Under the pieces are notes generated by a model that ran no database searches, was not told the DNA's origin, and saw only the letters and a program-made list of their open reading frames with translations. DNA of 64,000 nt from assembly GCA_964519015.1 (NCBI GenBank), contig CAZFHZ010000006.1, positions 18 through 64,017 on the forward strand, in the 5' to 3' direction. Shown here in pieces: positions 1,136 to 57,619 of the stretch. A program made the position numbers and the translations under genes. This DNA is from an uncultured Gemmatimonadota bacterium. GTDB taxonomy: Bacteria > Blakebacterota > Blakebacteria > Blakebacterales > CAYUVJ01. The first letter of the stretch is position 1. Each line of letters begins with the position of its first letter.

Positions 1136-1759
1136 GTGGACAGGGAGGAGACCATGACCGACCGGCCCGACATCCCCGGGAGCGTGCATGCGCTCATCCG
1201 GGAGCGCTGGAGTCCGAAGGTGTTCGATCCGGCTCCGCTGCCCGATCCGCTCCTGCGCGACATCTTCGAAGCGGCCCGCTGGGCCCCTTCCTCGATGAAC
1301 GAGCAGCCGTGGCGGTTCCTGCTGGGACGCCGGGACCGGGGTGAGACCTACGACCGGCTCCTGGCCACCCTCAGCGAGGGGAACGCGGTCTGGGCCCGCC
1401 AGGCTCCGGTGCTGGTACTGGCGGTGGCCTGCACCACCTACACCCGCCACGGGCGTGAGAACCGGCATGCCTGGCACGACACCGGGTTGGCCCTCGCCCA
1501 GCTCATCCTCCAGGCGACGGCGGGCGGTCTGGCGGTCCATCCGATGGGAGGGTTCGACGCGGCCGCCGCGCGGACGGCCGGTCGGATTCCCGAGGGGTTC
1601 GATCCGGTGGTGATGCTGGCGATCGGCCGGCGCGGAGACCCGTTGCGGGCCCCGCACGGGGTGGAGGAACGGGACCCGGCCGCCCGCTCCCGGCGGGGGC
1701 TCGAGGCGACCGTCTTCGAGGACTCGTGGGAGGAAGCGGCGCGTTTCGACGGAGCGTGA
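1136..1759 (+). CDS. Nitroreductase-family protein
   Basis: 207-aa ORF; SPKVFDP...EQPWRFLL...HDTGLALAQLILQATAGGLAVHPMGGFD nitroreductase-fold signature; GTG start at 1136, alternative ATG at 1154. Confidence 0.75.
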   Translation: MDREETMTDRPDIPGSVHALIRERWSPKVFDPAPLPDPLLRDIFEAARWAPSSMNEQPWRFLLGRRDRGETYDRLLATLSEGNAVWARQAPVLVLAVACTTYTRHGRENRHAWHDTGLALAQLILQATAGGLAVHPMGGFDAAAARTAGRIPEGFDPVVMLAIGRRGDPLRAPHGVEERDPAARSRRGLEATVFEDSWEEAARFDGA

Positions 1760-1769
1760 GGACGCCGAC

Positions 1770-2987: not shown

Positions 2988-3030
2988 GGTTCCAACCCTT
3001 TCACCCTGGCCGGCATCCTAAGGTAGGTTC

Positions 3031-3600
3031 ATGCAGCGAGAACCAGGCGCCCGTCCGGAGGGTTCGCCTCCGGAACCCGGGTCGGACGAAGAGGAGCTCG
3101 TCACCCGGGCCAGGCAGGGAGACCTCCGGGCCTTTGAAACATTGTACCGGATCAGCGTGGGGCGCGTTTATGCGCTCTGCCTGCGCCTGACCGGGGACAC
3201 TGAGCTCGCGCAGCGGCTCACCCAGGACGCTTTCGTGCTGGCCTGGGAGAAGCTGCCGGGTTTCCGGGGCGAGGCGGCCTTCACCTCCTGGCTGCACCGC
3301 CTGACCGTCAACGTCGTCCTGCAGGACCGGCGCAGCGACCGGAGAAGAATCGCCCGGCAGGCCGAAGCGGTGGCGGAGCGTTCCTCCTCGCCGGCTTCGG
3401 ACCCGGGTCCGGAGATGCGTATCGACCTGGAGCGGGCCATCGCCCGGCTCCCGGCCCGAGCGCGCACCGTCTTTCTGCTGCATGACGTGGAGGGATACCG
3501 GCACGAGGAGATCGCGGAGCTGACCGGGACGGCGGTGGGCACATCCAAAGCCCAACTCCACCGAGCCCGACGGCTGCTGCGGGAGATGATGCGGAGATGA
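3031..3600 (+). CDS. ECF (sigma-24 / RpoE-like) RNA polymerase sigma factor
   Basis: Sigma-70 region 2 (LVTRARQGDLRAFETLYRISVGRVYALCLRLTGD, FTSWLHRLTVN) and region 4 (TVFLLHDVEGYRHEEIAELTGTAVGTSKAQLHRAR). Confidence 0.9.
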   Translation: MQREPGARPEGSPPEPGSDEEELVTRARQGDLRAFETLYRISVGRVYALCLRLTGDTELAQRLTQDAFVLAWEKLPGFRGEAAFTSWLHRLTVNVVLQDRRSDRRRIARQAEAVAERSSSPASDPGPEMRIDLERAIARLPARARTVFLLHDVEGYRHEEIAELTGTAVGTSKAQLHRARRLLREMMRR

Positions 3601-4247
3601 ACTGCCATCAGGTCGACGAGATCGCCGGGGACTTCCTGGCCGGCCGGCTGCCGCCGGAGCAGGCCGGGGAGGTCGCCACCCACCTGGCCGGGTGCCCCCG
3701 GTGCCGGCTCGAAGTGGACCAGCTGCGCGACCTGCTCGAGGCCGCCCGGGAACTCCCCCGCTGGGTGGAGCCCCCCCGCGACTTCTGGTCGGGCGTGCGC
3801 AACCGGATCGAGGGGACGCCCGGCCGGCGTTCCCGGGTGGTGGCGGCCCCGCGACTCTGGAATCACCTGGCCCCGCTGTTGGCCACGGCGGCCACGGTCG
3901 CGTTGCTGCTGCTCTTCGGACCCGGTTTGGTCGAACGCATCCGACCCGTCTCCTTCACCTACTCCGATCTCGATCCGGTGGAGGTCGTCGACCTCGAGTT
4001 CAACCGTCTGCTGGCGTGCCTCCAGGCGGATGTCGAGGAGACGGTGACGCTTCCCTCCTCGGCCGCCCGGTCCGTCCAGGAAGGGCTACACATCATCGAC
4101 CAGGCCATCGCCGAGACGAAGGCCGCGGCCGAGCACTACCCCGGTGACCCGGACCTCCAGCGCCGGCTGGCCGGGTCGTACCAGGCCAAACTGGAACTGC
4201 TCCGCCGGACCACCAGTTACTCCGGCCGGAATGAAGTCCTCTACTGA
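3597..4247 (+). CDS. Anti-sigma factor (zinc-finger type)
   Basis: ATGA overlap with the sigma gene stop; MNCHQVDE...HLAGCPRCRLE (HxxxCxxC) N-terminus, central hydrophobic TM segment. Confidence 0.7.
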   Translation: MNCHQVDEIAGDFLAGRLPPEQAGEVATHLAGCPRCRLEVDQLRDLLEAARELPRWVEPPRDFWSGVRNRIEGTPGRRSRVVAAPRLWNHLAPLLATAATVALLLLFGPGLVERIRPVSFTYSDLDPVEVVDLEFNRLLACLQADVEETVTLPSSAARSVQEGLHIIDQAIAETKAAAEHYPGDPDLQRRLAGSYQAKLELLRRTTSYSGRNEVLY

Positions 4248-4263
4248 GTGAGGGGGGGATGCC

Positions 4264-5175
4264 ATGAATCGGAAGATCGTCAGCCTCGGCGTCGCGACGG
4301 TCATGCTGCTGGCGTGTACCGCGACATCGACCGGCGCGCAGGAGAAGGTGGACCGGAGATTGCCGGCGACCGCCACCGGCACGGTCCAGATCCGCAACCT
4401 GGCCGGTTCGGTCCGCGTGGTGGGCTGGGACCGTAACGAGGTCCAGGTCCAGGGGACCCTGGGACAGGGGACCGAACGGCTCGACTTCGAGAACCGTTCG
4501 GGGGTGATCGTGGTCGAGGTGATCCTGCCGGAACGGCGGGGGAACCAGCGGGAGAACCGGATCGGGGGCTCCGAGCTGGAGATCCGTGTCCCGGCCGGAG
4601 CGGTGATGGACGTGCGCACCGTCAGCGCCGGGATCCGTGTGGAGGGGGTGCGGGGGGCGCTCGATCTGGAGACGGTGAGTGGTGAGATCCAGACCATCGG
4701 GGAACCCGAGGAGGTGCGTGCCCGCACCATCAGCGGGGACATCGACATCGCCTCGAGCCGCGGATCGGTGAACGCCAACACCGTCAGCGGCGAGGTGACC
4801 ATCGGCCAGGCGGTCGGGGAGTTCAAGGTCACCACCATCTCGGGGAACGCCACGGTACGGGCGCGCGCCCTCACCGACGGCGCGTTCGACTCGATCGCCG
4901 GCAACCTCCGGTTCGACGGGGAGCTGGCCGCCCGGGCCCGGCTCGAGCTGGAGTCGCACTCCGGCACGATCGAGCTGACCGTCCCGGCGAACGTCTCAGC
5001 CCGTTTCGAGGTCGACACCTTCTCCGGCTCGATCCTCAACGCCTTCGGCCAGGAGCCGGTCCGGACGAGCCAATACGTGCCGGGCAAGGAACTCAACTTC
5101 ACCCAGGGCAGCGGGGACGCCCGGATCCGCATCCACGTCTTCAGTGGACGGGTGGAGATCCGCAAGCGCGGGTAG
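4264..5175 (+). CDS. DUF4097-family exported protein (putative adhesin-like beta structure)
   Basis: Signal peptide; repeated SG(D/E)I(x)V / GSVxV beta-strand repeats typical of DUF4097; commonly third gene of ECF/anti-sigma operons. Confidence 0.65.
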   Translation: MNRKIVSLGVATVMLLACTATSTGAQEKVDRRLPATATGTVQIRNLAGSVRVVGWDRNEVQVQGTLGQGTERLDFENRSGVIVVEVILPERRGNQRENRIGGSELEIRVPAGAVMDVRTVSAGIRVEGVRGALDLETVSGEIQTIGEPEEVRARTISGDIDIASSRGSVNANTVSGEVTIGQAVGEFKVTTISGNATVRARALTDGAFDSIAGNLRFDGELAARARLELESHSGTIELTVPANVSARFEVDTFSGSILNAFGQEPVRTSQYVPGKELNFTQGSGDARIRIHVFSGRVEIRKRG

Positions 5176-46528: not shown

Positions 46529-47899
46529 TCAGAGCCCCGGTACCCGCTTGAGGACCTCGGGCAGGTCGGGGGTGCCGACCTCCTGCAATTCGTAGGTCAC
46601 CCGAACGCTCGGCTGACCGATCTTGATCACCCGGCGCAGGTCGATCGGGGTACCGATGATGACCGCCTCGGCGTCGGAGGCGGCGATGGTCGCCTCCAGA
46701 TCCTTCATCTGCTCGTGACCGTAGCCCATGGCGGGCAGCAGGATGCCGATCTCCGGGTACTTCTCGAACGTCTCGGCGATGCTCCCCTGGGCGAAGGGGC
46801 GCGGGTCGACCAATTCGGAGGCGCCGTAGCGGTCGGCCGCCACCACCCCGGCGCCGTACTTCATGCCGCCGTGGGTGAGGGTCGGGCCGTCCTCGATCAC
46901 CAGCACCCGGCGGCCCTCGATCACCGCCGGGTCCTCCACATAGATCGGGGAGGCGGCGTCGATGATGACCGCCCGCGGATTGACCCTCTTGATGTTATTC
47001 CTCACCTTCTCGGTGTCGGCGTAGTCGGCCGTGGTCTCCTTGTTGATGATGACCACGTCGGCCATCTTCAGATTCGTCTCCCCCGGGTAGTAGGTCAGCT
47101 CGTGGCCGGGCCGGTGGGGATCGGCCACCACGATGTGCAGGTCGGGCTTGTAGAAGGGCGTGTCGTTGTTGCCGCCGTCCCAGAGGATGACGTCGGCCTC
47201 GCGCTGCGCCTCCTCCAGGATCCGGTGGTAGTCCACACCGGCGTAGACCACGATGCCGTTCACGATGTGGGGCTCGTACTCCTCCATCTCCTCGATCGTG
47301 CAGTCGTGGCGGGTGAGGTCTTCCAGCGACTCGAAACGCTGGACCGCCTGTTTGACCAGGTCGCCGTAGGGCATGGGGTGGCGGATCGCCACCACCTTCT
47401 TGCCGGCAGCCTGGAGCAGCTTGGCCACCCGGCGGGTGGTCTGGCTCTTGCCGCAACCGGTCCGGACCGCGCAGACGGCCACCACCGGGACCTTGGCCGG
47501 GAGCATCGTGCCGGCGGTGCCGAGCAGGACGAAGTCGGCCCCGGCGGCGTTGACGGTCGCAGCCAGGTGCCCGACGTATTCGTGGGAGATGTCGCTGTAG
47601 GAGAGGATGACCTGGTCGATCCGCTCCCGGGTGATGATCGCGGTGAGTTCCTCCTCGGGGAGGATGGGGATGCCCTCGGGGTAAAGGGGTCCGGCCAGCT
47701 GGGGCGGGTAGCGCCGCCCTTCAATGTCGGGGATCTGGGTGGCGGTGAAGGCCACTACTTCAGAGTCCTTATCGTCGCGGTAGACACAGTTGAAGTTGTG
47801 GAAATCCCGGCCGGCGGCTCCCAGGATGACCACACGCTTGCGCGCTGCCACGGGGATACCCTCCTGACGCTTCGCCTGGTTTCGGATGGGCGATGGCAC
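46529..47899 (-). CDS. P-loop protein of the cyclic 2,3-diphosphoglycerate synthetase (cDPGS) family
   Basis: 456 aa; P-loop VCAVRTGCGKSQTT; overall length and architecture recalled as cDPGS-like (from memory, not searched); stop adjoins the carbamate kinase start. Confidence 0.5.
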   Translation of the reverse strand: MPSPIRNQAKRQEGIPVAARKRVVILGAAGRDFHNFNCVYRDDKDSEVVAFTATQIPDIEGRRYPPQLAGPLYPEGIPILPEEELTAIITRERIDQVILSYSDISHEYVGHLAATVNAAGADFVLLGTAGTMLPAKVPVVAVCAVRTGCGKSQTTRRVAKLLQAAGKKVVAIRHPMPYGDLVKQAVQRFESLEDLTRHDCTIEEMEEYEPHIVNGIVVYAGVDYHRILEEAQREADVILWDGGNNDTPFYKPDLHIVVADPHRPGHELTYYPGETNLKMADVVIINKETTADYADTEKVRNNIKRVNPRAVIIDAASPIYVEDPAVIEGRRVLVIEDGPTLTHGGMKYGAGVVAADRYGASELVDPRPFAQGSIAETFEKYPEIGILLPAMGYGHEQMKDLEATIAASDAEAVIIGTPIDLRRVIKIGQPSVRVTYELQEVGTPDLPEVLKRVPGL

Positions 47900-48108
47900 A
47901 GTGGTGTTGCCCAGGGCGCTGATGCCGAAGGCGGGTTCCGATAGGGCAGGAAGTCGTCGCTTCCGCCCGCCGGTCTCACGAACCGGCGATGCTCCCTCTC
48001 CAGGTACCAGGGGGAGCTATAGATATCCCTAAACTAGGCTCCCGGGGGCGGCCGGTCAACCCCCCGGTCGGAATACCTAACTCGTTGCGTGATGACGGGA
48101 TGGCCCGC

Positions 48109-48582
48109 TCAGCGGGTCACCTTGAGGATGCGGTAACGGACCGCGCCGGCGGGGATGTTGATGGCGACCTCCTCCCCCGGCTTGCGGCCGAGCAGCCCGC
48201 TGCCGATCGGGCTCTCCACACTCAGCTTGCCGCGACGGGGGTCGGCCTCCGGCGGGGCCACCAGCAGGTAGACCTCCTCGGAGCCGTCCTCCAGGTCCTG
48301 GAGCGTGACGGTGGCGCCCAGGTAGCAAGCGCCCTCCGGGATGTCGGCGTCCTCGAGGGGGCGGGCGGTGGCCAGGGTCTGCTCGAGCTTGATGATGCGG
48401 CGCTCCAGGTGCTGCTGTTCCTCCTTGGCCACGTCGTACTCGGCGTTCTCGGCCAGGTCGCCGTGCCCGCGGGCGGTCTGGATCGCCTGGCTGGCCTCCG
48501 GCCGGCGCACGAACTTAAGGTGATGGAGCTCCTGCTGCAGCGCCTCGATGGCTTCCTTGCTCAGGTAGTGCGTTTTCGTCAT
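48109..48582 (-). CDS. greA: Transcription elongation factor GreA
   Basis: MTKTHYLSKEAIEALQQELHHLK...GDLAENAEYD (acidic finger) and C-terminal FKBP-like domain; start at internal Met. Confidence 0.9.
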   Translation of the reverse strand: MTKTHYLSKEAIEALQQELHHLKFVRRPEASQAIQTARGHGDLAENAEYDVAKEEQQHLERRIIKLEQTLATARPLEDADIPEGACYLGATVTLQDLEDGSEEVYLLVAPPEADPRRGKLSVESPIGSGLLGRKPGEEVAINIPAGAVRYRILKVTR

Positions 48583-48761
48583 GAGCGATACCCGGCTTGA
48601 CGTTAGCCGCGGACCACCCGGGGCGTGTCCGCGCCGATGCAAAACGGCTCCCCGCACCACGGGAAGCCGCACGCTCCGGCGGCCGCAGCCTCCGGCCGCA
48701 CTGCGGGCTATATTAACCGAAGCGGCACGATCCGACGAGCACTTTTTCCGGCGGAGGGACG

Positions 48762-49352
48762 ATGCTTTCACTGACCTGGTGGATCGGACGACCCTGGCGT
48801 TTCATCTGGGGCCCGATGGAGCTCTCCGCCATCGTCGCGGCGACCCTGCTGCTGGGAGGAGGCATCGCGCTCGGCATGCTGCTGGAACGGCGGGACGTGC
48901 GCTGGGCGGTCGCCTGGGCTCGCTGGTTCGTGGCCTGGGTCATCGACTGGGTCGAGCGCAACCCCCGGGCGATCGTCCGGACCGCCCTTCTGATCTGGTC
49001 GGTCAACAGCCTGACCGTGGGGCTGGTCGTGCTGGCCAGCTGGGCCCCCCCGCTGAGCGCGCTGCTGCTGGTGGTTGCCGGGCTCAACACCGGGGTGGGT
49101 CTGCAGCGCCTGGGCGGGACCCGGGCCCTGCTGGTGCTGCTGATGCCGCACGCCTGGATCGAGCTTCCGGCCACCTTGACCGCAGGCGCCGCCGCCCTGG
49201 AGGCGAGCGTCTACACCCTCGGCCTGAACGGATTCGATCCGGTGGCCGACCCGGTCTGGGCGCTCGCCTTCTTCCTCCGCTCCAGTCTGGCGCTGCTGCT
49301 CGGGGCGGCCGTGCTGGAAGCGGCCCTGCTCAGCGTGCGGGCCCAGGAGTAG
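48762..49352 (+). CDS. SpoIIM / DUF95-family integral membrane protein
   Basis: Multiple TM helices; LLMPHAWIELPATL resembles the PHGxxExPA motif of stage II sporulation protein M-family proteins. Confidence 0.55.
   Translation: MLSLTWWIGRPWRFIWGPMELSAIVAATLLLGGGIALGMLLERRDVRWAVAWARWFVAWVIDWVERNPRAIVRTALLIWSVNSLTVGLVVLASWAPPLSALLLVVAGLNTGVGLQRLGGTRALLVLLMPHAWIELPATLTAGAAALEASVYTLGLNGFDPVADPVWALAFFLRSSLALLLGAAVLEAALLSVRAQE
49304..49351 (+). repeat. Direct repeat copy A (3' end of SpoIIM-like gene), partner of 52921..53005
   Basis: GCGGCCGTGCTGGAAGCGGCCCTGCTCAGCGTGCGGGCCCAGGAGTAG; the last 27 nt match 52979..53005 with 2 mismatches. Confidence 0.7.
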
Positions 49353-49380
49353 GCGGTGGGTCACTGCCCGCGGCTTCCGG

Positions 49381-50547
49381 CTACTGTCCCCCCTCTCTGG
49401 GCTCCAAGGCCACGATCACACCGTTCGCGTAGTCGTAGGTGTAAAAGGTGGGCGCTGATGGGTTGTCGTCTACCACGAAGCGATGGGGCGCGAACTCCTC
49501 GGACGAGAACTCCTTCAGGTGGAACCACTTCACCGGTTTCATCGTGCGCGGATCGAACGCGTAAATGCCGAGCGTCCCGTACGGCTCCATCGGGGTGAGC
49601 CCCTTCCGGGCGACCCCGCTCACCATCACGTAGAGGAAGCCGGAGGAGGGCTGCCGGGCTACTCCGCTGAAACAGACCGCTTCGACTGGGCCGACCATCG
49701 GGCCCTGCGGACCATTCCCGCTTCGGTTGAGCCAATCCACATACTCGATGTTGGATACCACCTCGGGCAAATCCACCGGCTTCTCGAGCAGGAGCTCGCC
49801 CTGTGTGGACCAGACCTCCAGGAGCGGTCGGGACTCCCAGAGGAAGACCAGCGAGTCCCTTCCCGCGATCTCCAACAGGCCTTCGTTGGACCTTCCGACG
49901 CTCCCATCCCCCATCCCTTCGGGTCGGTAGATCTCTCCAAAATGGGCGATCAGTGTCCCGTCAATCCTGACGTGATGGATGCGTTTGAGGTCGGTCCTCC
50001 ACTGGAAGGGGTCGACAATCCAAAATGCATCCGATTCGGTTAGCGTAAGGGTGGCGTTGCTCTGGATACGGAACTGCCGTGCCGAGATCCGATCGATGAA
50101 CTCGGACGAGGTCGCGGAGAGGTGGAAATACGAGAGGGACATGCGCCATGTTCCCCTGTCCCCGACCCACAGGGTGGAAGTGGCCTCGTCATAAGCCAGA
50201 TCCCACGGTTCGCCGAACTCGCCGGGTCCCTCTCCGGAACGCCCTATGATCTCGATCAGCTCACCGGAAGTGTCGAACCTGATCACACGTGACCGCTCAC
50301 TGTCAGAAACCACCAGTTGTCCGGGGGGGATCCAGAGGATGTCTCGAGACCCCCCGATGACCTGCCAATCCTCCAAATTCGGAGAGAGCGGATCCCAGAG
50401 CGGTCTCAAGGTTAACTCGATCGACTCGATCCCCCGAATCGGCCTCGGTGCATGGACTCGGAAGAGCACGAACCAGGCGGCCACTCCGATGAGCGCGATC
50501 ACCACCAGGTCGATCAGGATCCTGCGTATCCCGCCACTGATCTTCAT
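49381..50547 (-). CDS. Membrane-anchored NHL-like 6-bladed beta-propeller protein (paralog 2 of 3)
   Basis: N-terminal TM anchor (ILIDLVVIALIGVAAWFVLF); blade motif GRSGEGPGEFGEPWDL shared with paralogs; sampled windows show lower GC (~55-58%) than flanking genes. Confidence 0.7.
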   Translation of the reverse strand: MKISGGIRRILIDLVVIALIGVAAWFVLFRVHAPRPIRGIESIELTLRPLWDPLSPNLEDWQVIGGSRDILWIPPGQLVVSDSERSRVIRFDTSGELIEIIGRSGEGPGEFGEPWDLAYDEATSTLWVGDRGTWRMSLSYFHLSATSSEFIDRISARQFRIQSNATLTLTESDAFWIVDPFQWRTDLKRIHHVRIDGTLIAHFGEIYRPEGMGDGSVGRSNEGLLEIAGRDSLVFLWESRPLLEVWSTQGELLLEKPVDLPEVVSNIEYVDWLNRSGNGPQGPMVGPVEAVCFSGVARQPSSGFLYVMVSGVARKGLTPMEPYGTLGIYAFDPRTMKPVKWFHLKEFSSEEFAPHRFVVDDNPSAPTFYTYDYANGVIVALEPREGGQ

Positions 50548-50710
50548 ATGGCCCCCCTCCCCGGGATGGAATCCATCCGCCCGGCTATGGAACGAGACGA
50601 TTGCCGCAACTGCTCTGGCAGAGGCAGACGGCGGCCACTACCAGGTGGAGGACGCCACGGAGTCGGTGCCGCGACCGGGCGGCGGAAACCGGCATGGTTC
50701 TCATCGCGTT

Positions 50711-51501
50711 CTATTCCCGATAGGTGTCCCGGCTTCGGACCCGGTAGAAGTACTCGTAGCCGAGCAGAACCGCGACCAGCAGAGTCACGGGCAGGAATGG
50801 GATGAGTTCCTGCCCCCATATGTCCGGCCTGAGTGCTCCGGGCCATCTGGTTCCCAGCGCCAGCCCGACCAGCCTGCGATCCAGGGAGGACAGGTTCAAT
50901 CCACCGAAAACCGGCACCAGCGCCACCACCAAGAGAACCAGCCACTGCCAGGATTTCAGGAGCGGACGGTTCCGGCGGCTCTCAAGGAGCAGAATGAAAA
51001 AAGAAAAGACGAGGCTCAGCACGAGCACGCCGGCGATGATCCAGAAGATGACTCCCTTGACGGCGACGACATCCCAGAACCCGAGCTCCTCCGGACCGGA
51101 CAGGTTGCGGCCCAGGCGGAACTGAGTCACGTCCACGAAGAAGAGCAGCCAGAATCCCAGCAGGACCAGGGTGACGCCGTGCAGGCTCACGGTCCGCCCC
51201 ACTCGGGCGAGGGCGATCTCCGTACGCGTGACCGGCAGGGGTAGGAGGAACCGCAGCCTCCGTTCCGCCTTGTCCACCGAGATGGTCTTGAAGGTCCAGT
51301 AGACATGCCCGGCCAGAACGAGCCACATCAGCAGACCGAACTCATCACCCAGCGAGGGACCAACAATGAAACCGGCCCCTGAGTGGTGCTCGTGGAGGGT
51401 TAAGAAGAGGGCCAGCGCCAATAAGCAGCCGTATCCGACCAGGATCGTCCGCCTGGAATACCGCAGGTCCGCCAGCAGCAGTTGCCCGGCCCGTCTAAGC
51501 A
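50711..51501 (-). CDS. ABC-2-type transporter permease
   Basis: Six hydrophobic helices; GTG start placed where the frame emerges from the ATPase stop; the upstream 140 codons of the ORF overlap the ATPase gene and are rejected. Confidence 0.65.
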
Positions 51502-52385
51502 CGATCCGTCCCTCCCTCCCGGTCCTTGAGGATTGCGACCGCAATCTCGTCGATGCCCAGGTGAGACACGTGAAGATCCCGGGCACCAATCGAATCCAGC
51601 TGGTGGAGTACGGCCTGGTAATCACCGGTCGTAATCCTGTGCTCGGATCCCCGGGAGCGGTGCTCGTGGATCCCGGCCATGAGCGGCAGGTCGCCGTCGA
51701 AGGTGAAGAGGATCTGCCGCCACCGGTCCACCAGGAGGTCGGTACGCTCTCGGCGGAAGATCTTGCCATCCCGGATGAAAGCCAGCTCGTCGGCCAGCCG
51801 CGAAATGTCTCCCAGCACGTGGGTGGCATAGAGGATCGAATGTTCCTCCTCCTCGGCCATGAACGCCCGCATGAGGTCCAGGGCGGTGGACCGCACGACC
51901 GGATCCAGGCCATCCGTGGGTTCATCGAAGAGGAGGAGGTGGGGCCGGTGAGCGAGGGCGGCCACCAGCCCCAATTTCACTCGGCTGCCCCGGGAGAGAA
52001 CCTGCACCGGCTTTTCCAGATCCAGGTCGAGCTGCTTGGCCAGGGCGGCCGCCAGCCGCCGATCCCAGTCCGGGTAGAAGCCGGCCAGGAATCCCAGATT
52101 CTCCCGGCCGGTCCACGACTCGTAGAACGGCCGTTCCTCTCCCAGGAACCCGATCGGCAGCTTCCACTCTGTCTTCCGGGCCTGCTGAGGCAGACCCGCG
52201 ACCTCCACCGTCCCCCGCTCGGGGAGAAGCAGACCGGCAATCAGGTGGAGCGTTGTGCTCTTACCCGCGCCGTTGGGACCCAGCAATCCCAGGACGGTGC
52301 CCGGCTCAAGTTCCAGATCGAGGGGCCCCAAAGTGAATCCGGGGAAGGACTTCATCAGGGTTGAAACCTTCAAGACGGCCGTCAT
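51495..52385 (-). CDS. ABC transporter ATP-binding protein
   Basis: Walker A GPNGAGKST, signature LSRGSRVKL, Walker B LLLFDEP, H-loop. Confidence 0.9.
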   Translation of the reverse strand: MTAVLKVSTLMKSFPGFTLGPLDLELEPGTVLGLLGPNGAGKSTTLHLIAGLLLPERGTVEVAGLPQQARKTEWKLPIGFLGEERPFYESWTGRENLGFLAGFYPDWDRRLAAALAKQLDLDLEKPVQVLSRGSRVKLGLVAALAHRPHLLLFDEPTDGLDPVVRSTALDLMRAFMAEEEEHSILYATHVLGDISRLADELAFIRDGKIFRRERTDLLVDRWRQILFTFDGDLPLMAGIHEHRSRGSEHRITTGDYQAVLHQLDSIGARDLHVSHLGIDEIAVAILKDREGGTDRA

Positions 52386-52789
52386 ACCGGTGCTCCTGTT
52401 GTTTTCAGGCTGTCCTCGATAATCCCGCGCACCTGGTCGGCATCCAGCCCCTGCGCCAGCGCGTCTCGTACCACCGGGGTGAGGGCCTCGCGGAGCCGTT
52501 CGAGGGCCAGCCCCTCCTTCTCGGGTCCCGACAGGGGGGAGACGAAGAACCCTTTGCCCGGCCGGGCATGGACAAGGCCCTCGCCTTCGAGGTCGGAGTA
52601 GGCGCGCTTGACTGTGATGACACTGACCCGCTGGTCCCGGGCCAACTCGCGGATGGAGGGAAGTCCATCCCCCGGCGCCAGGCGGCCGGACAGGATACGC
52701 GCCCGGATCTGCCGGGAGATCTGACCGTGGAGGGGTTCCGCAGATTGTTCGCTGAGATTCAGCAGCATGTCCCGGCTGTCCGTCCGCAA
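52382..52789 (-). CDS. GntR-family transcriptional regulator, short YtrA-like subfamily
   Basis: 135 aa; wHTH LPSIRELARDQRVSVITVKRAYSDLEGEGLV; short C-terminal extension typical of YtrA subfamily; TTG start at 52789 or ATG at 52768. Confidence 0.8.
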   Translation of the reverse strand: MRTDSRDMLLNLSEQSAEPLHGQISRQIRARILSGRLAPGDGLPSIRELARDQRVSVITVKRAYSDLEGEGLVHARPGKGFFVSPLSGPEKEGLALERLREALTPVVRDALAQGLDADQVRGIIEDSLKTTGAPV

Positions 52790-52801
52790 TGGATATCCAT
52801 G
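52790..52801. promoter_or_regulatory. Perfect palindrome ATGGATATCCAT abutting the GntR start, within an AT-rich promoter (52790..52870)
   Basis: Read directly; followed by TTTATACTATATATATACGGTAGATACAAG, the most AT-rich 40 nt of the window; candidate YtrA-type operator/promoter. Confidence 0.5.
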
Positions 52802-52920
52802 GCGAGTACTGGCCTGACCCGCTAGCTGTTTATACTATATATATACGGTAGATACAAGTCAAGCATGGAGAATCAATAGGCGGTCTTCCCCGGAATAGGG
52901 ACCTCCGTTCGTCCGCTGTT

Positions 52921-52995
52921 GCTCAGGGCGGCCGTGCTCTGAGCGGCCGTGCTCTGAGCGGCTGTGCTCGGAGCGGCCAGGCTCAGCGTGCGGGT
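52921..52995. repeat. 15-bp tandem repeat x5 (consensus GCTCWGAGCGGCCGT); expanded copy B of the SpoIIM-gene 3' end
   Basis: Units gctcagggcggccgt / gctctgagcggccgt / gctctgagcggctgt / gctcggagcggccag / gctcagcgtgcgggt; continues into ..ccgggagtag (to 53005), mirroring 49304..49351. Confidence 0.75.
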
Positions 52996-54584
52996 CCGGG
53001 AGTAGGCACTCCGGCGGGCGCCGTGGCCGACCCGGGCGGGACCGGCCCGGCCGGGTCCGGAGCGGGTGCTGGTGCACCCGGCCGGACATGGCTGGTATCG
53101 GGAGCCAGCAGCAGGCTCAGGGAGCACCCCCCGACCAGCAGCAGGATCCCGGTGAAGACGAAGCCGTTCTGGAAGGCCAGCACCTGCGCCCGGTGGGAGA
53201 TCTGGCCGGCAGCCAGCGCGGTGGCCCCGGCCGTCCCGCCGCTCAGAGAGGCCAACCGGGAGAAGGGAATAGAGGCGGCCGGCAGCAGTTCCCCCATGCG
53301 GACCGCGTGCTGGTGGGCGGCGCCGGTAACGTAGGTGTTGAGCAGGGCGATCCCGAAGGCCCCCCCCACCCGCTGCATGATGTTGAGGAAGCTGGCGGCC
53401 GTGGGCACCGACCGGCGCGGCACCGCGTTGATGGCGGCGGTCATGAGCGGGGCCATCATGAGGGCCAGGCCGATCCCCCTCAGGATCTGCGGTCCGATGA
53501 TGCCGGCCGCCCCGGTGAGCGGGTCGAGCCGGCCGTAGAGCAGCATCGAGACGGCCGCCGTGGCCGTCCCGATGAACACCAGCGGACGCGGGTTGAAGCG
53601 GTCGGAGAGCCGGCCCGCCACCGGCATGAAGGCCCCCACCGCGAGCGCTCCCGGCATCATCCAAAGGCCGGTCTGCAGGGTCGTGTAGCCGACCAGGTTC
53701 TCCAGGAAGATGGGCAGCAGGAAGACCCCGCCGAACAGGCCGATCGCTCGGAAGACGGCCAGCGCCATGCTCATGGTGTAGTTGCGGTAGCGGAAGAGGT
53801 TGAGGTCGAGCAGGGGCCTGGCCGCCGAGAACTCCACCCCCAGGAAGAGCACCAGCCCGATCACCGCCAGGGCCGAGGCGGTCAGCACATAGGTCGAGTC
53901 CCACCCCTTCTGCTGCCCGTTGGAGAGGGCCAGCAGTCCGGCGATCAGGAAGAGGGAGAGGAAGGCGTAGCCCAGGACGTCGAGCCGGGAGGGCTGCTCA
54001 CTCCGTTCATCATGCCGTTTCATCACGATCAGCCCGGTGGCCAGCAGGAGCACCCCGATCGGCAGGTTGACCGAGAAGATGCTCCGCCAGCCGAGCCAGT
54101 CGGTCAGGTAGCCCCCCAGGGTGGGTCCCACCGCCGGTCCCACCATGATCCCCATCGACCAGATCCCCAGCGCCCGGCCCCGCTCGTGCGGCTCGAAGAG
54201 GCTGGCCACCAGCGCCATCCCGATCGGCTGGATGGCCCCTCCGCCGACCGCCTGCACGACGCGGGCGAGGATGAGCGACTCCATACTCCAGGCCAGCGCA
54301 CAGAAGGCGGAACCGAGCGTGAAGAGGAAGAGACTGCCCAGGTAGAGGGTCTTGTAGGTCACCCGGTCGGTCAGCCAGCCGATCAGCGGCATGGCGACCG
54401 CGCTGGCCAGCATGAAGGCGGTGGCCACCCATTCGATGGCCTCCCGGTCCACCCCGAAGGCGCTCATCATGTGCGGCAGGGCGACGTTGACGATGCTCGA
54501 GTCGAGGATCGCCATCAGGGTCCCGGTCATCACGATGCCCAGGACCAGCCAGCGGTAGTAGCGACCCGGGGAGGGATCGCTCAT
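52983..54584 (-). CDS. emrB: MFS transporter, DHA2 (EmrB/QacA, 14-TMS) drug-efflux family
   Basis: MFS motif GWLTDRVTYKTLYL / LARVVQAVGGGA; 14 predicted TMs; 4-bp overlap with emrA stop; Pro/Ala-rich C-terminal tail overlaps the tandem-repeat region. Confidence 0.85.
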   Translation of the reverse strand: MSDPSPGRYYRWLVLGIVMTGTLMAILDSSIVNVALPHMMSAFGVDREAIEWVATAFMLASAVAMPLIGWLTDRVTYKTLYLGSLFLFTLGSAFCALAWSMESLILARVVQAVGGGAIQPIGMALVASLFEPHERGRALGIWSMGIMVGPAVGPTLGGYLTDWLGWRSIFSVNLPIGVLLLATGLIVMKRHDERSEQPSRLDVLGYAFLSLFLIAGLLALSNGQQKGWDSTYVLTASALAVIGLVLFLGVEFSAARPLLDLNLFRYRNYTMSMALAVFRAIGLFGGVFLLPIFLENLVGYTTLQTGLWMMPGALAVGAFMPVAGRLSDRFNPRPLVFIGTATAAVSMLLYGRLDPLTGAAGIIGPQILRGIGLALMMAPLMTAAINAVPRRSVPTAASFLNIMQRVGGAFGIALLNTYVTGAAHQHAVRMGELLPAASIPFSRLASLSGGTAGATALAAGQISHRAQVLAFQNGFVFTGILLLVGGCSLSLLLAPDTSHVRPGAPAPAPDPAGPVPPGSATAPAGVPTPGPAR

Positions 54585-55705
54585 CGAGAGGGACCACCCG
54601 GTCCGCTGCGGCCAGCCCCCTGCCCCCCGACATGGATGCGGACGTGGGCGGAGAGTCCGGGGAGCAGGAGTGGTTCGGTCCCCTTCCCCTCCCCATCGGA
54701 GAGGGGCAGCAGCCGGATGCGCACCGGCACGCGCTGGGAGACTTTGATGAAGGTGCCCGCGACCCCCTCGGAGGGGATCAGGCTGAAGGAGGACTGGGTC
54801 GCCTGCACGATCGAGACGACCTCACCGGGCAGCACCCGGTCGGGGTAAGCGTCGAGGCGGATGTCCACCCGCTGGCCGGGGGCGACCAGGGCCAGGTGCT
54901 TCTCCTCTATATTGGCCTCCAGCCGCAGGGTAGTGGGATCGTAGAGGGTGACCACCGGGAGGGATGAGGAGGTGTTGCTCCCCGGCTCCCGCCAGCGGCG
55001 CACGATGAGACCGGCCACCGGCGCGACGACTGCGGTCTCCGAGGCCGCGATCCGCGCCTGCTCGATCGCGCTCCGGGCCAGATCGGCGCGGGCCCGGGCG
55101 GAGGCCAGGGCGGCCTCGGCCGCCGCCAGGTCCTCCGGGCGGGTGCCCTGCCGCAGCAGGGACAGGCGCGCCTGCGCCTCGGCCAGCGACTGCCGGTCCA
55201 GTTCCAGGCCGGTCAGCAGGCGGTCGAGCTGCTGGCCGGCCACCGAGCCGGTCTGGGCCAGCCGCTGCTGCCGCTCGAGTTCCTGCTCGGCCAGCCGGAT
55301 CTGGGCCTGGAGCTTCTCCACCTCGGCGGCGGCGACCGCGATCTCCTCGGGCAGCGGACCGTTCCGGGCCCGGCGCAGGCGGGCCTCAGCGCTGGAGGCC
55401 TCGGCCAGGGTGACGCGCAGCCCCTCCTCGGCCTGCCGGACACGCAGGCGGGCGTCCCGCTCGTCGAGCCGGAAAAGGGTGTCCCCGGCCGCCACCCGCT
55501 CCCCTTCGTGCACGCGGACCTCGGCCAGGCGTCCAGCGATCACCGGAGCGAGGTCGATCAGTTCCCCGGCCAGCCGGGCATCATCAGTGGCCAGCACTCC
55601 GACCAGGACGAGCCGCCAGTAGAGGGTCAGGCACAGGGCAGCCAGCAGCAGCGCGCCGAACGCGATCAGGAAGGGCCGGGGGAGACGGGGGAGGGGGAGC
55701 TTCAC
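54581..55705 (-). CDS. emrA: HlyD-family membrane fusion protein (EmrA-like)
   Basis: N-terminal TM anchor, long coiled-coil (AEARLRRA...LAEAQARL), C-terminal beta-domain. Confidence 0.85.
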   Translation of the reverse strand: MKLPLPRLPRPFLIAFGALLLAALCLTLYWRLVLVGVLATDDARLAGELIDLAPVIAGRLAEVRVHEGERVAAGDTLFRLDERDARLRVRQAEEGLRVTLAEASSAEARLRRARNGPLPEEIAVAAAEVEKLQAQIRLAEQELERQQRLAQTGSVAGQQLDRLLTGLELDRQSLAEAQARLSLLRQGTRPEDLAAAEAALASARARADLARSAIEQARIAASETAVVAPVAGLIVRRWREPGSNTSSSLPVVTLYDPTTLRLEANIEEKHLALVAPGQRVDIRLDAYPDRVLPGEVVSIVQATQSSFSLIPSEGVAGTFIKVSQRVPVRIRLLPLSDGEGKGTEPLLLPGLSAHVRIHVGGQGAGRSGPGGPSR

Positions 55706-55728
55706 GGGATATCCTTCGGTTGGGTGGG

Positions 55729-56193
55729 TCAGAGCCGTTCGATGCTCTCATTGAGACGTTCCAGCAGTTCGCTCAGTCGGTCGATATCGCGGGCCGGCCA
55801 CTCCCGGAGGATCTGCCTGTAGGTGGCCATGCGGGCCGCCCGGGCCCGGGTCAGGAAATCCGCTCCCTCGCCGGTCAATTTCAGGCGCACCCGCCGCCGG
55901 TCCGTCTCGCAGGGGGTGCGCGCTACCAGGCCCCCTTCGACCAGCCGGTCGACCAGCCGGCTGGCCGTCGAGGGCTCGACATCAAGGGCAGTGGCCACCT
56001 CACCCAGCCCCTGGTCGGGCCGGGCGAGCCCCTCGATGGCGCGCAGGATCCGGATCGTGCCCGGTTCGACCGCCTGGCCGAAATGGGCGGTGAAGACCTG
56101 ACGCAGGTGGGGCCGGCCCCAGATCCGGCGCAGCCGTGAAAGGGCCACGTCGAGCAGCTCGAGCCGGCGGCGATTGCTTCCGGAAGAGGTCAT
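55729..56193 (-). CDS. MarR-family transcriptional regulator
   Basis: wHTH region (LTRARAARMATYRQILREWPARDIDRLSELLERL); start set at MTSSGSN; precedes emrA-emrB as in emrRAB loci. Confidence 0.8.
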   Translation of the reverse strand: MTSSGSNRRRLELLDVALSRLRRIWGRPHLRQVFTAHFGQAVEPGTIRILRAIEGLARPDQGLGEVATALDVEPSTASRLVDRLVEGGLVARTPCETDRRRVRLKLTGEGADFLTRARAARMATYRQILREWPARDIDRLSELLERLNESIERL

Positions 56194-56211
56194 GCATGTA
56201 CGATGCATCAA

Positions 56212-56228
56212 TTGCATAATACATGCAA
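56212..56228. promoter_or_regulatory. Palindrome TTGCATAATACATGCAA in an AT-rich leader upstream of the MarR gene (candidate MarR operator)
   Basis: Perfect 6-5-6 inverted repeat; two further ATGCAT hexamers within 30 nt upstream. Confidence 0.45.
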
Positions 56229-56412
56229 TAACACATCGTCCTGCCCATCTGCCTCCCTCCCGGCGTCCGGTTGTTCCTCACCGGCCGGCCCGGGTGACAT
56301 CGACAGATGATCCGCGCGGTTTGACCCGGTAGGCATCGTCCATCCGCCTCCCGGCTCGTTGAACGGGGACGGATACCTGCGCGACGGCTGACCCAGGCCG
56401 GGAGGTTTCTCC

Positions 56413-57588
56413 ATGAGGATTCGTGATGCTCCCTGTCCGATCCCCATTCTGACCGTGCTGCTGGTCGCCGGTTGCGGCGGGCAGAGGGGCTCCGACCCGG
56501 TGGTCACTCGCCTCCCCTCCGGGGAGGTCGTGACCACCTACCGCAGCCTGCCGATCCACCCCCTGGTCCTGGACACCCTGGCCGTCTGGGACCTCTGGAG
56601 CGGGGAGAGCGGCTACCTCTTCAGCCGGCTGGCGGGAGCCGCCGGGGACGCCGGCGGCTTCTACCTGCTCGACTCGGGCAACCGGCAGGTGGTCGCGACC
56701 GACCCCCGCGGGCGGGTCCGGACCGTGTTCGGGCGACGGGGGGAAGGGCCGGGTGAGTTCGGTTTCCCCCGTTTCCTGAACGTGGTGGGCGCTCAGGTAT
56801 GGGTCGGGGATATCATGCCGGTGCGTTTCTCCCTCTTCGATCCCGACGGCACCTTCCGCCGGACCATCCCCAGCCTGCGTCCGCTCGTGCCCGGACCCGA
56901 CGGCTGCGCCATTCTCCCCGACGGCCGCGTGCTCAACGCGATGGACGAGGTGGACGGCCGGCTCGCCCTGCTCCGCTTCGATCCGGCCACCGGCACCGGC
57001 GACACCCTGGCGGTCATGGAGAGTCTGGCCGCCGTGGTGATCGAGCTGACCCGCAGCGACGGGAGCGTGGTCCCCTTCGATACCCGGCCCCAGTTCGCCC
57101 CCGAACTCCACTGGGCGTGGTCGGAGACGGGGCGCCTGGTGACCGTCACGGGAGTGGACTACACCTTCGAGGAGCGGGACTCGGGCGGGCGCATCCGGCG
57201 GCGGCTGACCGCCTCCACCCCGGCCCTGGAAGTGACCGCGGCCGACCGGGAGACCTTCTTCCGCGACACCCGCTTCGGCTTCGGTGACGGGGCCGGCGTC
57301 TCCTCGGAGGAGATCCGCCGGCGGTGGGTCTTCGCCGAGCGGCGCCCGGCCATCACCGGGATCCGGATTGATCCGCTCGGGCGGATCTGGGTACTGGCCG
57401 CCACCCCGGACGTGCACGCATCGCGTACCGACCTCTTCGACGCCGACCACCACTACCTGGGGAGCCTGGAACTGCCGGCACTCCCGCTGGCCTTCACCCC
57501 GGACGGCACCGCCCTGCTGCGCATCGTCCGGGAGGAGGGACGGGAGGTTTGTTTCACCGCCCGAATACGATTCCGGAACGAAGATTGA
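56413..57588 (+). CDS. Lipoprotein, NHL-like 6-bladed beta-propeller (paralog 3 of 3)
   Basis: Lipobox LLVAGCGG; blade motif GRRGEGPGEFGFPRF; alignable along its length with 1770..2987. Confidence 0.7.
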   Translation: MRIRDAPCPIPILTVLLVAGCGGQRGSDPVVTRLPSGEVVTTYRSLPIHPLVLDTLAVWDLWSGESGYLFSRLAGAAGDAGGFYLLDSGNRQVVATDPRGRVRTVFGRRGEGPGEFGFPRFLNVVGAQVWVGDIMPVRFSLFDPDGTFRRTIPSLRPLVPGPDGCAILPDGRVLNAMDEVDGRLALLRFDPATGTGDTLAVMESLAAVVIELTRSDGSVVPFDTRPQFAPELHWAWSETGRLVTVTGVDYTFEERDSGGRIRRRLTASTPALEVTAADRETFFRDTRFGFGDGAGVSSEEIRRRWVFAERRPAITGIRIDPLGRIWVLAATPDVHASRTDLFDADHHYLGSLELPALPLAFTPDGTALLRIVREEGREVCFTARIRFRNED

Positions 57589-57619
57589 CCCTCTTGTAAC
57601 GATTTCGTACACTACCGGC

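Follow-up and report, generated by a model that had tools for sequence, protein, structure and literature searches.

Within the 64-kb window, that is the whole stretch of 64,000 nucleotides analysed here, a 3.56-kb segment separates two convergent resident genes, one coding for a SpoIIM-like membrane protein and the other for the efflux permease EmrB. The segment is probably, with modest confidence, a horizontally acquired four-gene module with its own promoter that entered by homology-anchored import, displacing the 3' end of the resident gene, in a recombination hotspot and without an element-encoded integrase. Taken together, the data suggest that recombination with the DNA of a relative is to be favoured over a dedicated integrase, site-specific integration being less likely.

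The inserted module and its resident neighbours

The target gene (48762..49352, plus strand) encodes a SpoIIM/DUF95-like membrane protein of 196 aa that matches Pfam SpoIIM with E=1.6e-5, just under the gathering score, and belongs with 12 homolog clusters in which the LMPHAWIE and ADPVWA motifs are conserved. Upstream of it, the synteny GreA-456aa-AA_kinase-NYN is kept in all relatives. The resident right-hand neighbour (52983..54584, minus strand) is an EmrB/DHA2 MFS efflux permease (TIGR00711, 6e-122; MFS_1, 1.5e-62) whose Pro-rich 3' tail is an antisense reading of the SpoIIM 3' end.

The four enclosed genes all lie on the minus strand. The first, NHL1 (49381..50547), codes for a 388-aa six-bladed beta-propeller of the NHL/DUF5128 type (Pfam DUF5128, 1.4e-5; NHL, 5e-4), anchored by an N-terminal TM segment that hydropathy predicts at residues 2-34. 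Its homologs, at 66-71% identity, occupy other genomic contexts, one of them adjoining a different GntR-ABC-ABC2 operon (contig L019), and the closest ones are found in host genomes of GC 0.51-0.65. It is followed by a putative permease of 263 aa (50711..51502) that has about six predicted hydrophobic segments and no match in Pfam or NCBIfam, and whose position and topology point to the ABC-2 type; its GTG start codon, preceded by the RBS-like motif GGGAGGGAGG, overlaps the stop of the ATPase gene by 8 nt. The best NCBIfam matches of the 296-aa ABC transporter ATPase (51495..52385; Pfam ABC_tran, 1.1e-23) are PmtA-like and DrrA-like, and that of the short GntR-family (YtrA-like) regulator (52382..52768; 128 aa from the ATG at 52768; Pfam GntR, 4.5e-19) is PmtR-like (1.2e-22), all of them under their cut-offs. 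A tRNA-Arg called by ARAGORN at 52036-52110 was rejected as a false positive, being located inside the coding region of the ABC_tran domain and having no Rfam match. The cargo promoter region (52789..52862, minus strand) contains a sigma-70-like TTGACT-17-TATAGT at 52862-52834, which agrees with the promoter consensus at 10 of 12 positions, and a perfect palindrome, ATGGATATCCAT, at 52789-52800, which is a candidate operator. In gene content (by Pfam, NCBIfam and topology) as well as in promoter and palindrome, the module is as the initial annotation had described it.

This organization resembles that of YtrA-subfamily GntR regulators with ABC exporters such as PmtR/PmtABCD, since a short GntR protein (winged helix-turn-helix) is encoded directly upstream of ATPase and permease, in an operon whose own promoter is followed by a palindrome. 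Unlike in the PmtR/PmtABCD type, all cargo NCBIfam scores stay far under the equivalog cut-offs, no model fits the permease and the operon ends in a TM-anchored NHL propeller. A role in envelope or antibiotic defence would be compatible with the family matches (PmtR/PmtA-like, DrrA-like).

In composition the cargo is foreign and deviates from the window, as had been expected of the enclosed genes. Its pooled GC is 0.630 vs 0.695 +/- 0.023 for the 47 other genes of the window, the four genes rank 1, 1, 2 and 5 from the bottom of 48, and GC3 is 0.78-0.81 in the cargo vs 0.87-0.94 in the immediate flanks. NHL1, with the lowest GC of the window (0.608), is indeed poorer in GC (0.61) than its two paralogs NHL2 (0.71) and NHL3 (0.72).

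The repeat, the empty site and the alternative cargo

The segment is bounded by a direct repeat. A repeat search of the window matched 58 nt at 49297-49354 to 52950-53007 (84%, ungapped), and identity is 56/64 between 49291-49354 and 52914-52934 plus 52965-53007 once a 30-nt tandem expansion is allowed for. The left copy (49291..49354, plus strand) consists of the last 62 nt of SpoIIM, stop codon included, and 2 further nt. The right copy (52914..53007, plus strand) is a displaced, non-coding SpoIIM 3' end whose tandem units, as read from the sequence, contain in-frame TGA codons; it supplies the emrB stop codon, which falls within it (52983-52985). The expansion (2 x 15 nt) was put at 52935-52964, a placement that is arbitrary as to which two 15-nt units are the extra ones. 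The recurrence of the SpoIIM 3' end downstream, reported earlier with five 15-bp tandem units, was recovered, and the units were revised to four clear ones and a degenerate one, TRF giving TGCTCTGAGCGGCCG x3.9 at 52920-52978. A weaker 15-nt periodicity is found in the SpoIIM-like gene itself (49296-49331).

The repeat is genuine and specific to the SpoIIM/EmrB locus. In such GC-rich sequence, with its dozens of weak 20-30-nt pairs at 70-80% identity, one might suspect that the copies match by chance or belong to a dispersed REP-like element, and that the segment between them is ordinary resident DNA. That explanation is refuted, its probability being negligible: the 25-nt core GCTCAGCGTGCGGGYCCRGGAGTAG is present in exactly two copies in the window vs none expected from 100 shuffles, the copies match each other at E=1e-6 (blastn-short), and the right one is orthologous to a single-copy sequence of contig L023. 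A 22-mer core gave three unrelated chance matches in metagenome contigs and none in viral contigs, in line with the expectation that the flanking repeat would be specific to the locus.

The comparison loci are all short metagenome contigs. Among them, L023 has the gene order GreA / SpoIIM >< EmrB / HlyD / MarR, in which SpoIIM and EmrB are convergent with overlapping 3' ends, and it encodes no cargo protein. Window positions 47828-49349 align to L023rc 1-1523 (90.4%) and 52950-56228 to L023rc 1471-4754 (90.0%); because these alignments overlap on L023rc, a single 53-nt stretch of L023 aligns to both repeats of the window. The two EmrB proteins are 93% identical. The proposed relative with an empty site, where SpoIIM is directly followed by emrB, does exist in L023, and together with the repeat it confirms that the segment was inserted in the 3' end of the SpoIIM-like gene, whose duplicated end bounds it. 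In the uninterrupted arrangement the 3' ends of SpoIIM and emrB overlap by 23-26 nt. An insertion between the two that spares both genes must therefore duplicate the overlap, and the duplicated overlap is the repeat.

An unrelated kinase-WD40 gene occupies the same site in five contigs (L001, L002, L024-26). On one side this gene has a full SpoIIM with about 40 nt more, and on the other a SpoIIM fragment that begins at gene nt 262, reaches the stop and lacks 270 nt internally. The duplication measures 64 nt in the window; at the kinase-WD40 gene it reaches about 370 nt or more and runs into the emrB tail, and its boundaries differ. No sequence is common to the two cargos. The repeat copies of the kinase-WD40 genomes represent two alleles, GGAATAGCCCCGC and GTAGGCGCTCCG, which differ in a GAA codon and in the post-stop sequence. 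The kinase-WD40 cargos of L002 and L024 are 96-97% identical and EmrB of L002 is 97-100% L023-like and only 92% L024-like; because the cargos are alike and the EmrB affinities differ, this cargo shifts between backgrounds by flanking homology.

In relatives at 45-55% SpoIIM identity, a sigma-54 activator, which starts at 57620 in the window, lies about 100-300 nt after SpoIIM, and in a group at 71% SpoIIM identity other genes are found between SpoIIM and the activator position. A location of the SpoIIM 3' region within a lineage-specific recombination hotspot is favoured. As in chromosomal hotspots of horizontal gene transfer that lie between core genes (Oliveira, Touchon & Rocha 2017, PMC5635113), the SpoIIM-to-sigma-54-activator interval holds different gene sets across related genomes with rapid turnover, many fillings have no mobility genes and the flanks bear signs of homologous recombination. 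Unlike those hotspots, which predict no direct repeat of the flanking gene end, the locus has a repeat as a local result of the convergent-gene overlap.

Ancestry of the SpoIIM gene and probable displacement of its end

The ancestry of SpoIIM changes from about 48910 to the stop codon, straight into the cassette. Compared with the L001=L023 consensus, the window differs at 22 of 1060 sites (2.1%) upstream of ~48910 and at 52 of 444 (11.7%) downstream (Fisher 1.2e-13), and 30 of these 52 downstream differences (58%) are common to the window and L007. At ~48910 the site patterns flip from ((win,L023),(L001,L007)) to ((win,L007),(L001,L023)), win being the window. The resulting tract of discordant ancestry (48911..49380, plus strand), presumably donor-derived, comprises the SpoIIM 3' ~440 nt and a 28-nt spacer and is contiguous with the cargo. 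It is patchy, being clearly L007-like only in 48901-49080 and merely divergent 3' of there. The spacer, located after the SpoIIM stop, matches L007 at 24 of 28 positions, a score equalled by 0 of 2000 shuffles. In L007, as in the window, SpoIIM is followed by a propeller gene; the propeller of L007, a contig of just 1.9 kb, is a different one from NHL1.

These features can be accommodated by 3' end displacement through homology-facilitated illegitimate recombination (HFIR), which was proposed for the T6SS effector-immunity arrays of Vibrio cholerae and for rhs loci (PMC5361080); the precedents cited there include Jackson et al. 2009 (PMC2935791), de Vries & Wackernagel 2002 (PMC122324) and Prudhomme et al. 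2002 (PMC122325). The donor would have been a related lineage that already possessed propeller-type cargo behind its SpoIIM. Through one crossover inside SpoIIM near 48910, the donor SpoIIM 3' end, the 28-nt spacer and the cargo would have entered together, and the far end of the fragment would have joined the resident SpoIIM illegitimately, some 60 nt ahead of its stop codon. This would have pushed the resident SpoIIM 3' end rightward, to serve now only as the end of emrB, and the displaced end would since have drifted, with 12% divergence, in-frame stops and the 30-nt expansion by slippage. The ancestry change and the cargo probably arrived in this single event, and the right junction appears to be illegitimate; microhomology there is short (CGCTG), and the informative sites inside the 64-nt repeat are too few to assign the resident copy. 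The corresponding donor arrangement (SpoIIM, spacer, NHL1 ... GntR, then neither repeat nor emrB) was not found among the comparison contigs. Alternatively, in a population with much recombination the ancestry tract could adjoin the cargo by coincidence, or ordinary double crossover could have brought in the whole structure already complete with the right repeat, in which case the repeat would predate the transfer and have an earlier origin in another lineage.

The likeness to the T6SS and rhs loci is one of sequence patterns alone: the homology anchor lies in a conserved gene, a new gene end and downstream cargo would be brought in, the old 3' end would be pushed downstream as an orphan, there is no element-encoded recombinase and related strains hold different cargos. 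Unlike there, the anchor is a housekeeping-type membrane protein and not a polymorphic toxin, its gene end is not functionally variable, a single end is displaced rather than an array, and this end is kept through the overlapping emrB stop codon and not through an immunity gene.

Site-specific integration and older duplication as alternatives

The initial annotation had seen in the locus the footprint of integrase-type site-specific integration. The SpoIIM 3' end would then be attB, a decayed or non-autonomous (CIME-like) element would have carried in a further copy of the gene end, and a tyrosine or serine recombinase would have been lost or be encoded elsewhere. This origin is unlikely, although the duplication of a gene 3' end around foreign DNA, the intact gene, the displaced copy as a pseudogene fragment and the empty site in relatives recall prophage e14 in icd with its icdC pseudogene, where an integrase inserts in the gene 3' end with a restoring copy (PMC13626634, in which Hill et al. 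1989 is cited), and the CIMEs, elements that have att flanks but no recombination genes (ICEberg 2.0, PMC6323972; PMC5704250). Moreover, one gene end was used by two unrelated cargos with the core within both duplications, the repeat copies are different alleles as if one had arrived with the element, the 28-nt sequence beside the left repeat, common to L007, could be an element arm, and in contig L020 an NHL1 homolog lies between an integrase (tyrosine recombinase) and a DDE transposase. What argues against it is that neither cargo has a recombinase, a remnant of one or room for one, and that recombinase or transposase domains are absent from the ~57 ORFs of the window and from the kinase-WD40 cargo. 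The earlier remark that integrase, transposase and tRNA are missing holds for the cassette and for the 64-kb window, neither of which contains a genuine tRNA (ARAGORN, Rfam). The cargo ends have neither inverted repeats nor motifs in common, the cassette was not found in plasmid or phage collections, and no attP-like copy of the core nor any cognate element using the SpoIIM-end site was found in the viral, metagenome, plasmid and phage collections searched. Unlike with e14, integrase and excisionase are lacking, the duplication boundaries of the two events differ on both sides (64 nt vs ~370 nt or more, into the emrB tail) and the exchanged tract far exceeds the repeat. Since the ancestry change begins ~380 nt upstream of the repeat, it is not the product of an att crossover; a homologous crossover would give it. 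The integrase-type footprint was accordingly not upheld.

A still more doubtful scenario is an older local duplication, in which a single ancestral event of slippage or unequal crossing-over, in a repeat-rich stretch, copied the SpoIIM 3' part and the overlap in tandem. It would have left a neutral spacer between two intact gene ends, where unrelated DNA was later gained or lost independently in different lineages, and the repeat would then not be a trace of the insertion of the cargo. The region changes easily through its repeats, as attested by a SpoIIM internal repeat of 19-26 nt along with the 15-nt periodicity, by the 270-nt deletion between SpoIIM internal repeats in the kinase-WD40 remnant and by the 30-nt expansion in that of the window; the 64 nt of the window are also nested in the longer kinase-WD40 duplication, as if both had been trimmed from one ancestor. 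Nevertheless, the L002 remnant resembles the SpoIIM of L002 (108/115) more closely than that of the window (106/118) or of L007 (105/117), which is unexpected for an ancient neutral copy. Tandem duplication does not create the allele-type markers (GAA codon, post-stop sequence), leaves the ancestry switch in the SpoIIM of the window unexplained and requires the empty site to be a secondary loss. With homology-anchored import and displacement of the resident 3' end as the preferred reading, the locus is an ordinary, though well documented, instance of genome plasticity.

A duplicated gene end around a four-gene cargo

The SpoIIM/DUF95-like gene (48762-49352, forward strand) has a 3' end that recurs 3.6 kb downstream. 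A repeat search of the window matched 49297-49354 to 52950-53007 (58 nt, 84% ungapped identity), and the complete repeat pairs 49291-49354 with 52914-52934 plus 52965-53007, 56 of 64 positions being identical when a 30-nt expansion of two units is left out. Exactly two occurrences of the 25-nt core GCTCAGCGTGCGGGYCCRGGAGTAG exist in 64 kb and none in 100 shuffles, which bears out the recurrence of the gene end at the right side of the cassette reported in the initial annotation. No third copy of the repeat was detected in the window by blastn-short, including at the far end of an 8.2-kb lineage-specific block, where it would have suggested serial integration. A 15-nt unit repeated 3.9 times was delimited by TRF at 52920-52978, and two of these units in the right copy were treated as a slippage expansion. 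The tandem array was also considered as an emrB terminator, which is unsupported (fold z=-2.2, no U-tract).

The right copy is non-coding on the forward strand because of in-frame TGA codons, and read on the reverse strand it encodes the final codons of emrB and its stop (52983-52985). It adjoins resident-type emrB without a break and is the ortholog of the single copy of L023, a metagenome contig with an empty site. It probably represents the displaced resident 3' end, retained downstream; informative sites within the repeat alone are too few to assign residency. EmrB ends in a Pro/Ala-rich tail of about 32 residues (52983-53102), not conserved among other EmrB homologs, which originates from read-through over a spacer rich in GC into the SpoIIM 3' end in antisense. 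The same antisense-encoded ...PTPGPAR* closes the propeller ORF of L007, a 1.9-kb contig.

Between the repeats lie four genes, all on the reverse strand: a TM-anchored NHL/DUF5128 propeller, hereafter NHL1 (49381-50547), a 263-aa putative permease with about six TM segments and without family match (50711-51502), an ABC ATPase (51495-52385; ABC_tran, 1.1e-23) and a GntR regulator of 128 aa (52382-52768; Pfam 4.5e-19, PmtR-like 1.2e-22). They are preceded by a sigma-70-like promoter rated good (TTGACT-17-TATAGT, 52862-52834, reverse strand). A perfect 12-nt palindrome, ATGGATATCCAT (52789-52800), is located after the -10 box and before the start codon of GntR and is a candidate operator for autoregulation. 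In agreement with the foreign origin that had been proposed, the four genes rank lowest or nearly so in GC among 48 window genes (pooled GC 0.630 versus 0.695 +/- 0.023), and their GC3 is 0.78-0.81 versus 0.87-0.94 in the immediate neighbours.

Three states of one locus in close relatives

SpoIIM homologs are rare, forming only 12 clusters; their sources are uncultured MAGs that bear the label Gemmatimonadota or Zixiibacteriota. All SpoIIM relatives keep the left flank (NYN, AA_kinase, a 456-aa protein, GreA and SpoIIM). In those with 45-55% SpoIIM identity, the sigma-54 activator whose start is at 57620 in the window follows SpoIIM within about 100-300 nt, so that the whole of 49353-57595 is lineage-specific filling. 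In a group with 71% identity, the gap holds other genes and the repeat was looked for and found absent; these varied fillings indicate that the interval between SpoIIM and the sigma-54 activator is a hotspot across the wider lineage. A DUF3147-like gene is present in this gap in L003 (10530-11932) and L004 (1771-2601), two contigs of which only L003 has a Lumazine_bd_2 gene.

Relatives with about 90% DNA identity occur in three states, namely empty, with the cargo of the window, or with a different cargo. The empty state is that of L023, in which the order is GreA, SpoIIM, EmrB, HlyD and MarR, with SpoIIM and emrB converging, their ends overlapping by 26 nt, and no cargo protein encoded. As the initial annotation had anticipated for an empty site, SpoIIM is thus directly followed by EmrB. 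Window 47828-49349 aligns with 1-1523 of the L023 reverse complement and window 52950-56228 with 1471-4754, which makes a single 53-nt stretch of L023 the counterpart of both window repeats.

The different cargo, present in five metagenomes (L001, L002, L024-26), consists of a Ser/Thr kinase-WD40 gene whose AT-rich promoter is its own. The SpoIIM copy on its left comprises the whole gene and about 40 nt of the emrB tail; the copy on its right begins at gene nt 262, reaches the stop and has lost 270 nt between two internal repeats. The number of WD40 units of about 126 nt varies in the kinase-WD40 gene, which encodes 674 aa in L002 (911-2935) and at least 1059 aa in L024 (11923-15099), the contigs breaking within the WD40 repeats.

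In L007 (84% identical), SpoIIM is followed by the 28-nt spacer of the window, beyond which another propeller gene lies. This contig was considered as an empty site and rejected: a 23-nt overlap with a minus-strand ORF fits, but the ORF is a propeller and not emrB.

What varies in this neighbourhood is repeatedly a propeller gene. Window 56229-57431, containing most of the paralog NHL2 (56413-57588, forward strand), is missing in L023 and L024-26 with only the last ~157 nt of NHL2 remaining, and this loss beside the sigma-54 activator is a deletion polymorphism. Right after the same activator, L024 (4792-6694), L025 and L026 carry an extra 1.9 kb with a 413-aa DUF5128/NHL propeller and a 159-aa ORF, at a point where the window is contiguous (59076/59085).

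Ancestry of the SpoIIM gene and route of cargo entry

Compared with the consensus on which L001 and L023 agree, the window differs at 22 of 1060 sites upstream of position ~48910 and at 52 of 444 downstream (Fisher p=1.2e-13). The discordant tract starts within SpoIIM about 380 nt upstream of the repeat, and divergence between L001 and L023 does not rise in this region. L007 shares 30 of the 52 downstream differences with the window, and the shared-site pattern switches from ((window, L023), (L001, L007)) to ((window, L007), (L001, L023)). The tract extends past the stop codon and across the L007-like spacer directly into the cargo, that is, an exchange tract in the anchor gene is contiguous with foreign DNA. 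Such a course is explained by a homologous crossover and not by a crossover at an att site. At the far junction, the 5-nt CGCTG at 52914 is a possible microhomology.

The best-supported mechanism is therefore the import of DNA anchored by homology, in which the resident 3' end is displaced. Within SpoIIM, a homologous crossover would bring a donor gene end together with the cargo, and the displacement would proceed by homology-facilitated illegitimate recombination in a recombination hotspot. We infer that a single event delivered both tract and cargo and that the junction on the right is illegitimate; the repeat-cargo structure may also have entered, already complete, from another lineage. 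The gene end is always part of the repeat because SpoIIM and emrB overlap when the site is empty, and only products that duplicate the overlap spare both genes. This route matches the 3' end displacement model that has been put forward for rhs loci and arrays of T6SS effectors (PMC5361080), and it matches the general picture of chromosomal hotspots (PMC5635113).

The initial annotation had read the duplicated gene end as the footprint of site-specific integration with the integrase absent. This reading, in which a recombinase acts in trans or has since been lost, is unlikely. It retains the classical e14 pattern known from icd/icdC (PMC13626634), inasmuch as repeats from the 3' end of the target gene flank the insert and a relative (L023) has an empty site with a single copy, and both duplications include the 22-nt core GCTCAGCGTGCGGGYCCRGGAG. 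The e14/icd-type element also has a tyrosine or serine recombinase gene beside its att site, and foreign sequence in the restored gene is limited to the att repeat; here no such gene is found inside the element and the discordant tract begins at ~48910, far upstream of the repeat. As the initial annotation had stated, integrase, transposase and tRNA are absent: no recombinase or transposase Pfam domain was detected in the four cargo genes, in about 57 window ORFs or in the kinase-WD40 cargo, and the sole ARAGORN call, a tRNA-Arg(tct) at 52036-52110 (reverse strand) considered as a target, is a false positive lying in the region coding for the ABC_tran domain of the ATPase, without Rfam match. 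Neither cargo has room for a recombinase; all four genes of the window cargo carry other assignments, and intergenic gaps within it do not exceed 163 nt, the space at the right end being about 145 nt. Moreover, the limits of the duplication differ on both sides between the two cargos (stop-62 to stop+2 in the window, gene nt 262 to stop+~40 in the other, which makes ~370 nt or more). The two cargos share neither ends nor motifs nor any common sequence at all. Among the sequences searched, the core is confined to the locus, with no match in viral contigs and three in metagenome contigs that are attributed to chance because they have no other similarity to the window. The cassette had no match in phages and, in plasmids, only one of 71 nt at 80% identity. 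If a site-specific excision took place, the circular junction would read ...GGAATAGGGACCTCCGTTCGTC, repeat, GGTGGGTCACTGCCCGCGG.... A chance repeat or a REP element is excluded by the two-copy core, by blastn-short and by the orthology with the single copy of L023.

The cassette resembles in form the att-flanked CIMEs that lack recombination and transfer genes; the cognate autonomous element that a CIME requires, using the SpoIIM-end site, was not found in the viral, metagenome, plasmid and phage collections searched. Integron cassettes need adjacent intI and attI, end in attC imperfect inverted repeats and are mostly promoterless, whereas the neighbours here are GreA, SpoIIM and EmrB, the cargo ends without inverted repeat and the cassette has its own promoter. 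Insertion sequences and transposons differ by their transposase, their terminal inverted repeats, both absent here, and their short target-site duplications, compared with 64 to ~370 nt or more at this locus. It is very improbable that the stretch where the 3' end of SpoIIM overlaps emrB serves as a dedicated attachment site for a family of recombinase-less cassettes, comprising the propeller/ABC module, the kinase-WD40 gene and the L007 propeller, which a chromosomal recombinase would exchange in trans. If true, this would be an integron-like cassette system with a gene end as its target, within an uncultured lineage related to Gemmatimonadota. An ancient tandem duplication later filled with unrelated DNA would suit the slippage-prone sequence and the nested boundaries of the two duplications. 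It is nonetheless distinctly unlikely, since the two copies differ by allele and the remnant in L002 is nearest to the SpoIIM of L002 itself.

The kinase-WD40 cargo lends further support to homology-anchored import. The two SpoIIM copies around it are of different allele types, GGAATAGCCCCGC and GTAGGCGCTCCG. The cargo is 96-97% identical between L002 and L024, and the emrB of L002 is 97-100% L023-like but only 92% L024-like. Exactly at the junction of remnant and emrB, L002 (3281-3284) has an in-frame deletion of ~100 nt at an AGCC microhomology, with loss of the Pro/Ala-rich tail. Local alignment of its post-stop sequence with the window right flank was not significant, and an anchored comparison with L024 allowing a GAA codon indel gave 28 of 39 identities, which represents real homology.

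Function of the module and meaning of the locus

The GntR regulator is short (wHTH plus a small C-terminal domain) and its gene is directly upstream of the ATPase and putative permease genes, as in YtrA-type operons. Together with the ATPase, it best matches PmtR/PmtA- and DrrA-type exporter systems, far below family cut-offs. On sequence grounds, the module is consistent with an autoregulated exporter of the YtrA type, and no more specific assignment is justified. The closest homologs of NHL1 are 66-71% identical and occur in three other contexts. One (67%) forms a divergent pair with another GntR-ABC-ABC2 operon (L019, 2-4253; same MAG as L012), others form tandem paralogs (L022), and a further one (66%) lies between a tyrosine recombinase gene with a Phage_integrase domain and a DDE transposase (L020, 2959-7115; genome GC 0.52). 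These contexts indicate that the propeller family belongs to a mobile gene pool, and the propeller may work together with YtrA-type exporters. A third propeller paralog of the window (1773-2963, reverse strand), 35% identical to NHL2, adjoins an ECF sigma factor and zf-HC2 anti-sigma pair (3022-4247; whole region 1773-4247).

Insertion into the end of the SpoIIM gene is supported by the empty site of L023, the locus-specific repeat and the deviant composition of the cargo. The integrase footprint is not favoured, given the lack of a recombinase, the variable duplication limits and the ancestry switch upstream of the repeat. The case adds, from an uncultured lineage, a new and well-resolved example of processes already known, namely turnover in hotspots and displacement of 3' ends, and one metagenome series records three states of the locus (empty, cargo A, cargo B) in closely related bacteria. 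An integrase need not be assumed when foreign DNA is flanked by a duplicated gene end, and where convergent genes overlap, homology-anchored recombination can yield exactly the pattern of a duplicated overlap. The main value lies in a caution for island-finding tools that take gene-end repeats as att sites. Beyond that, the locus reflects ordinary accessory-gene acquisition, and the recurring association of NHL1-type membrane-anchored propellers with YtrA-type ABC exporter operons could guide functional work.
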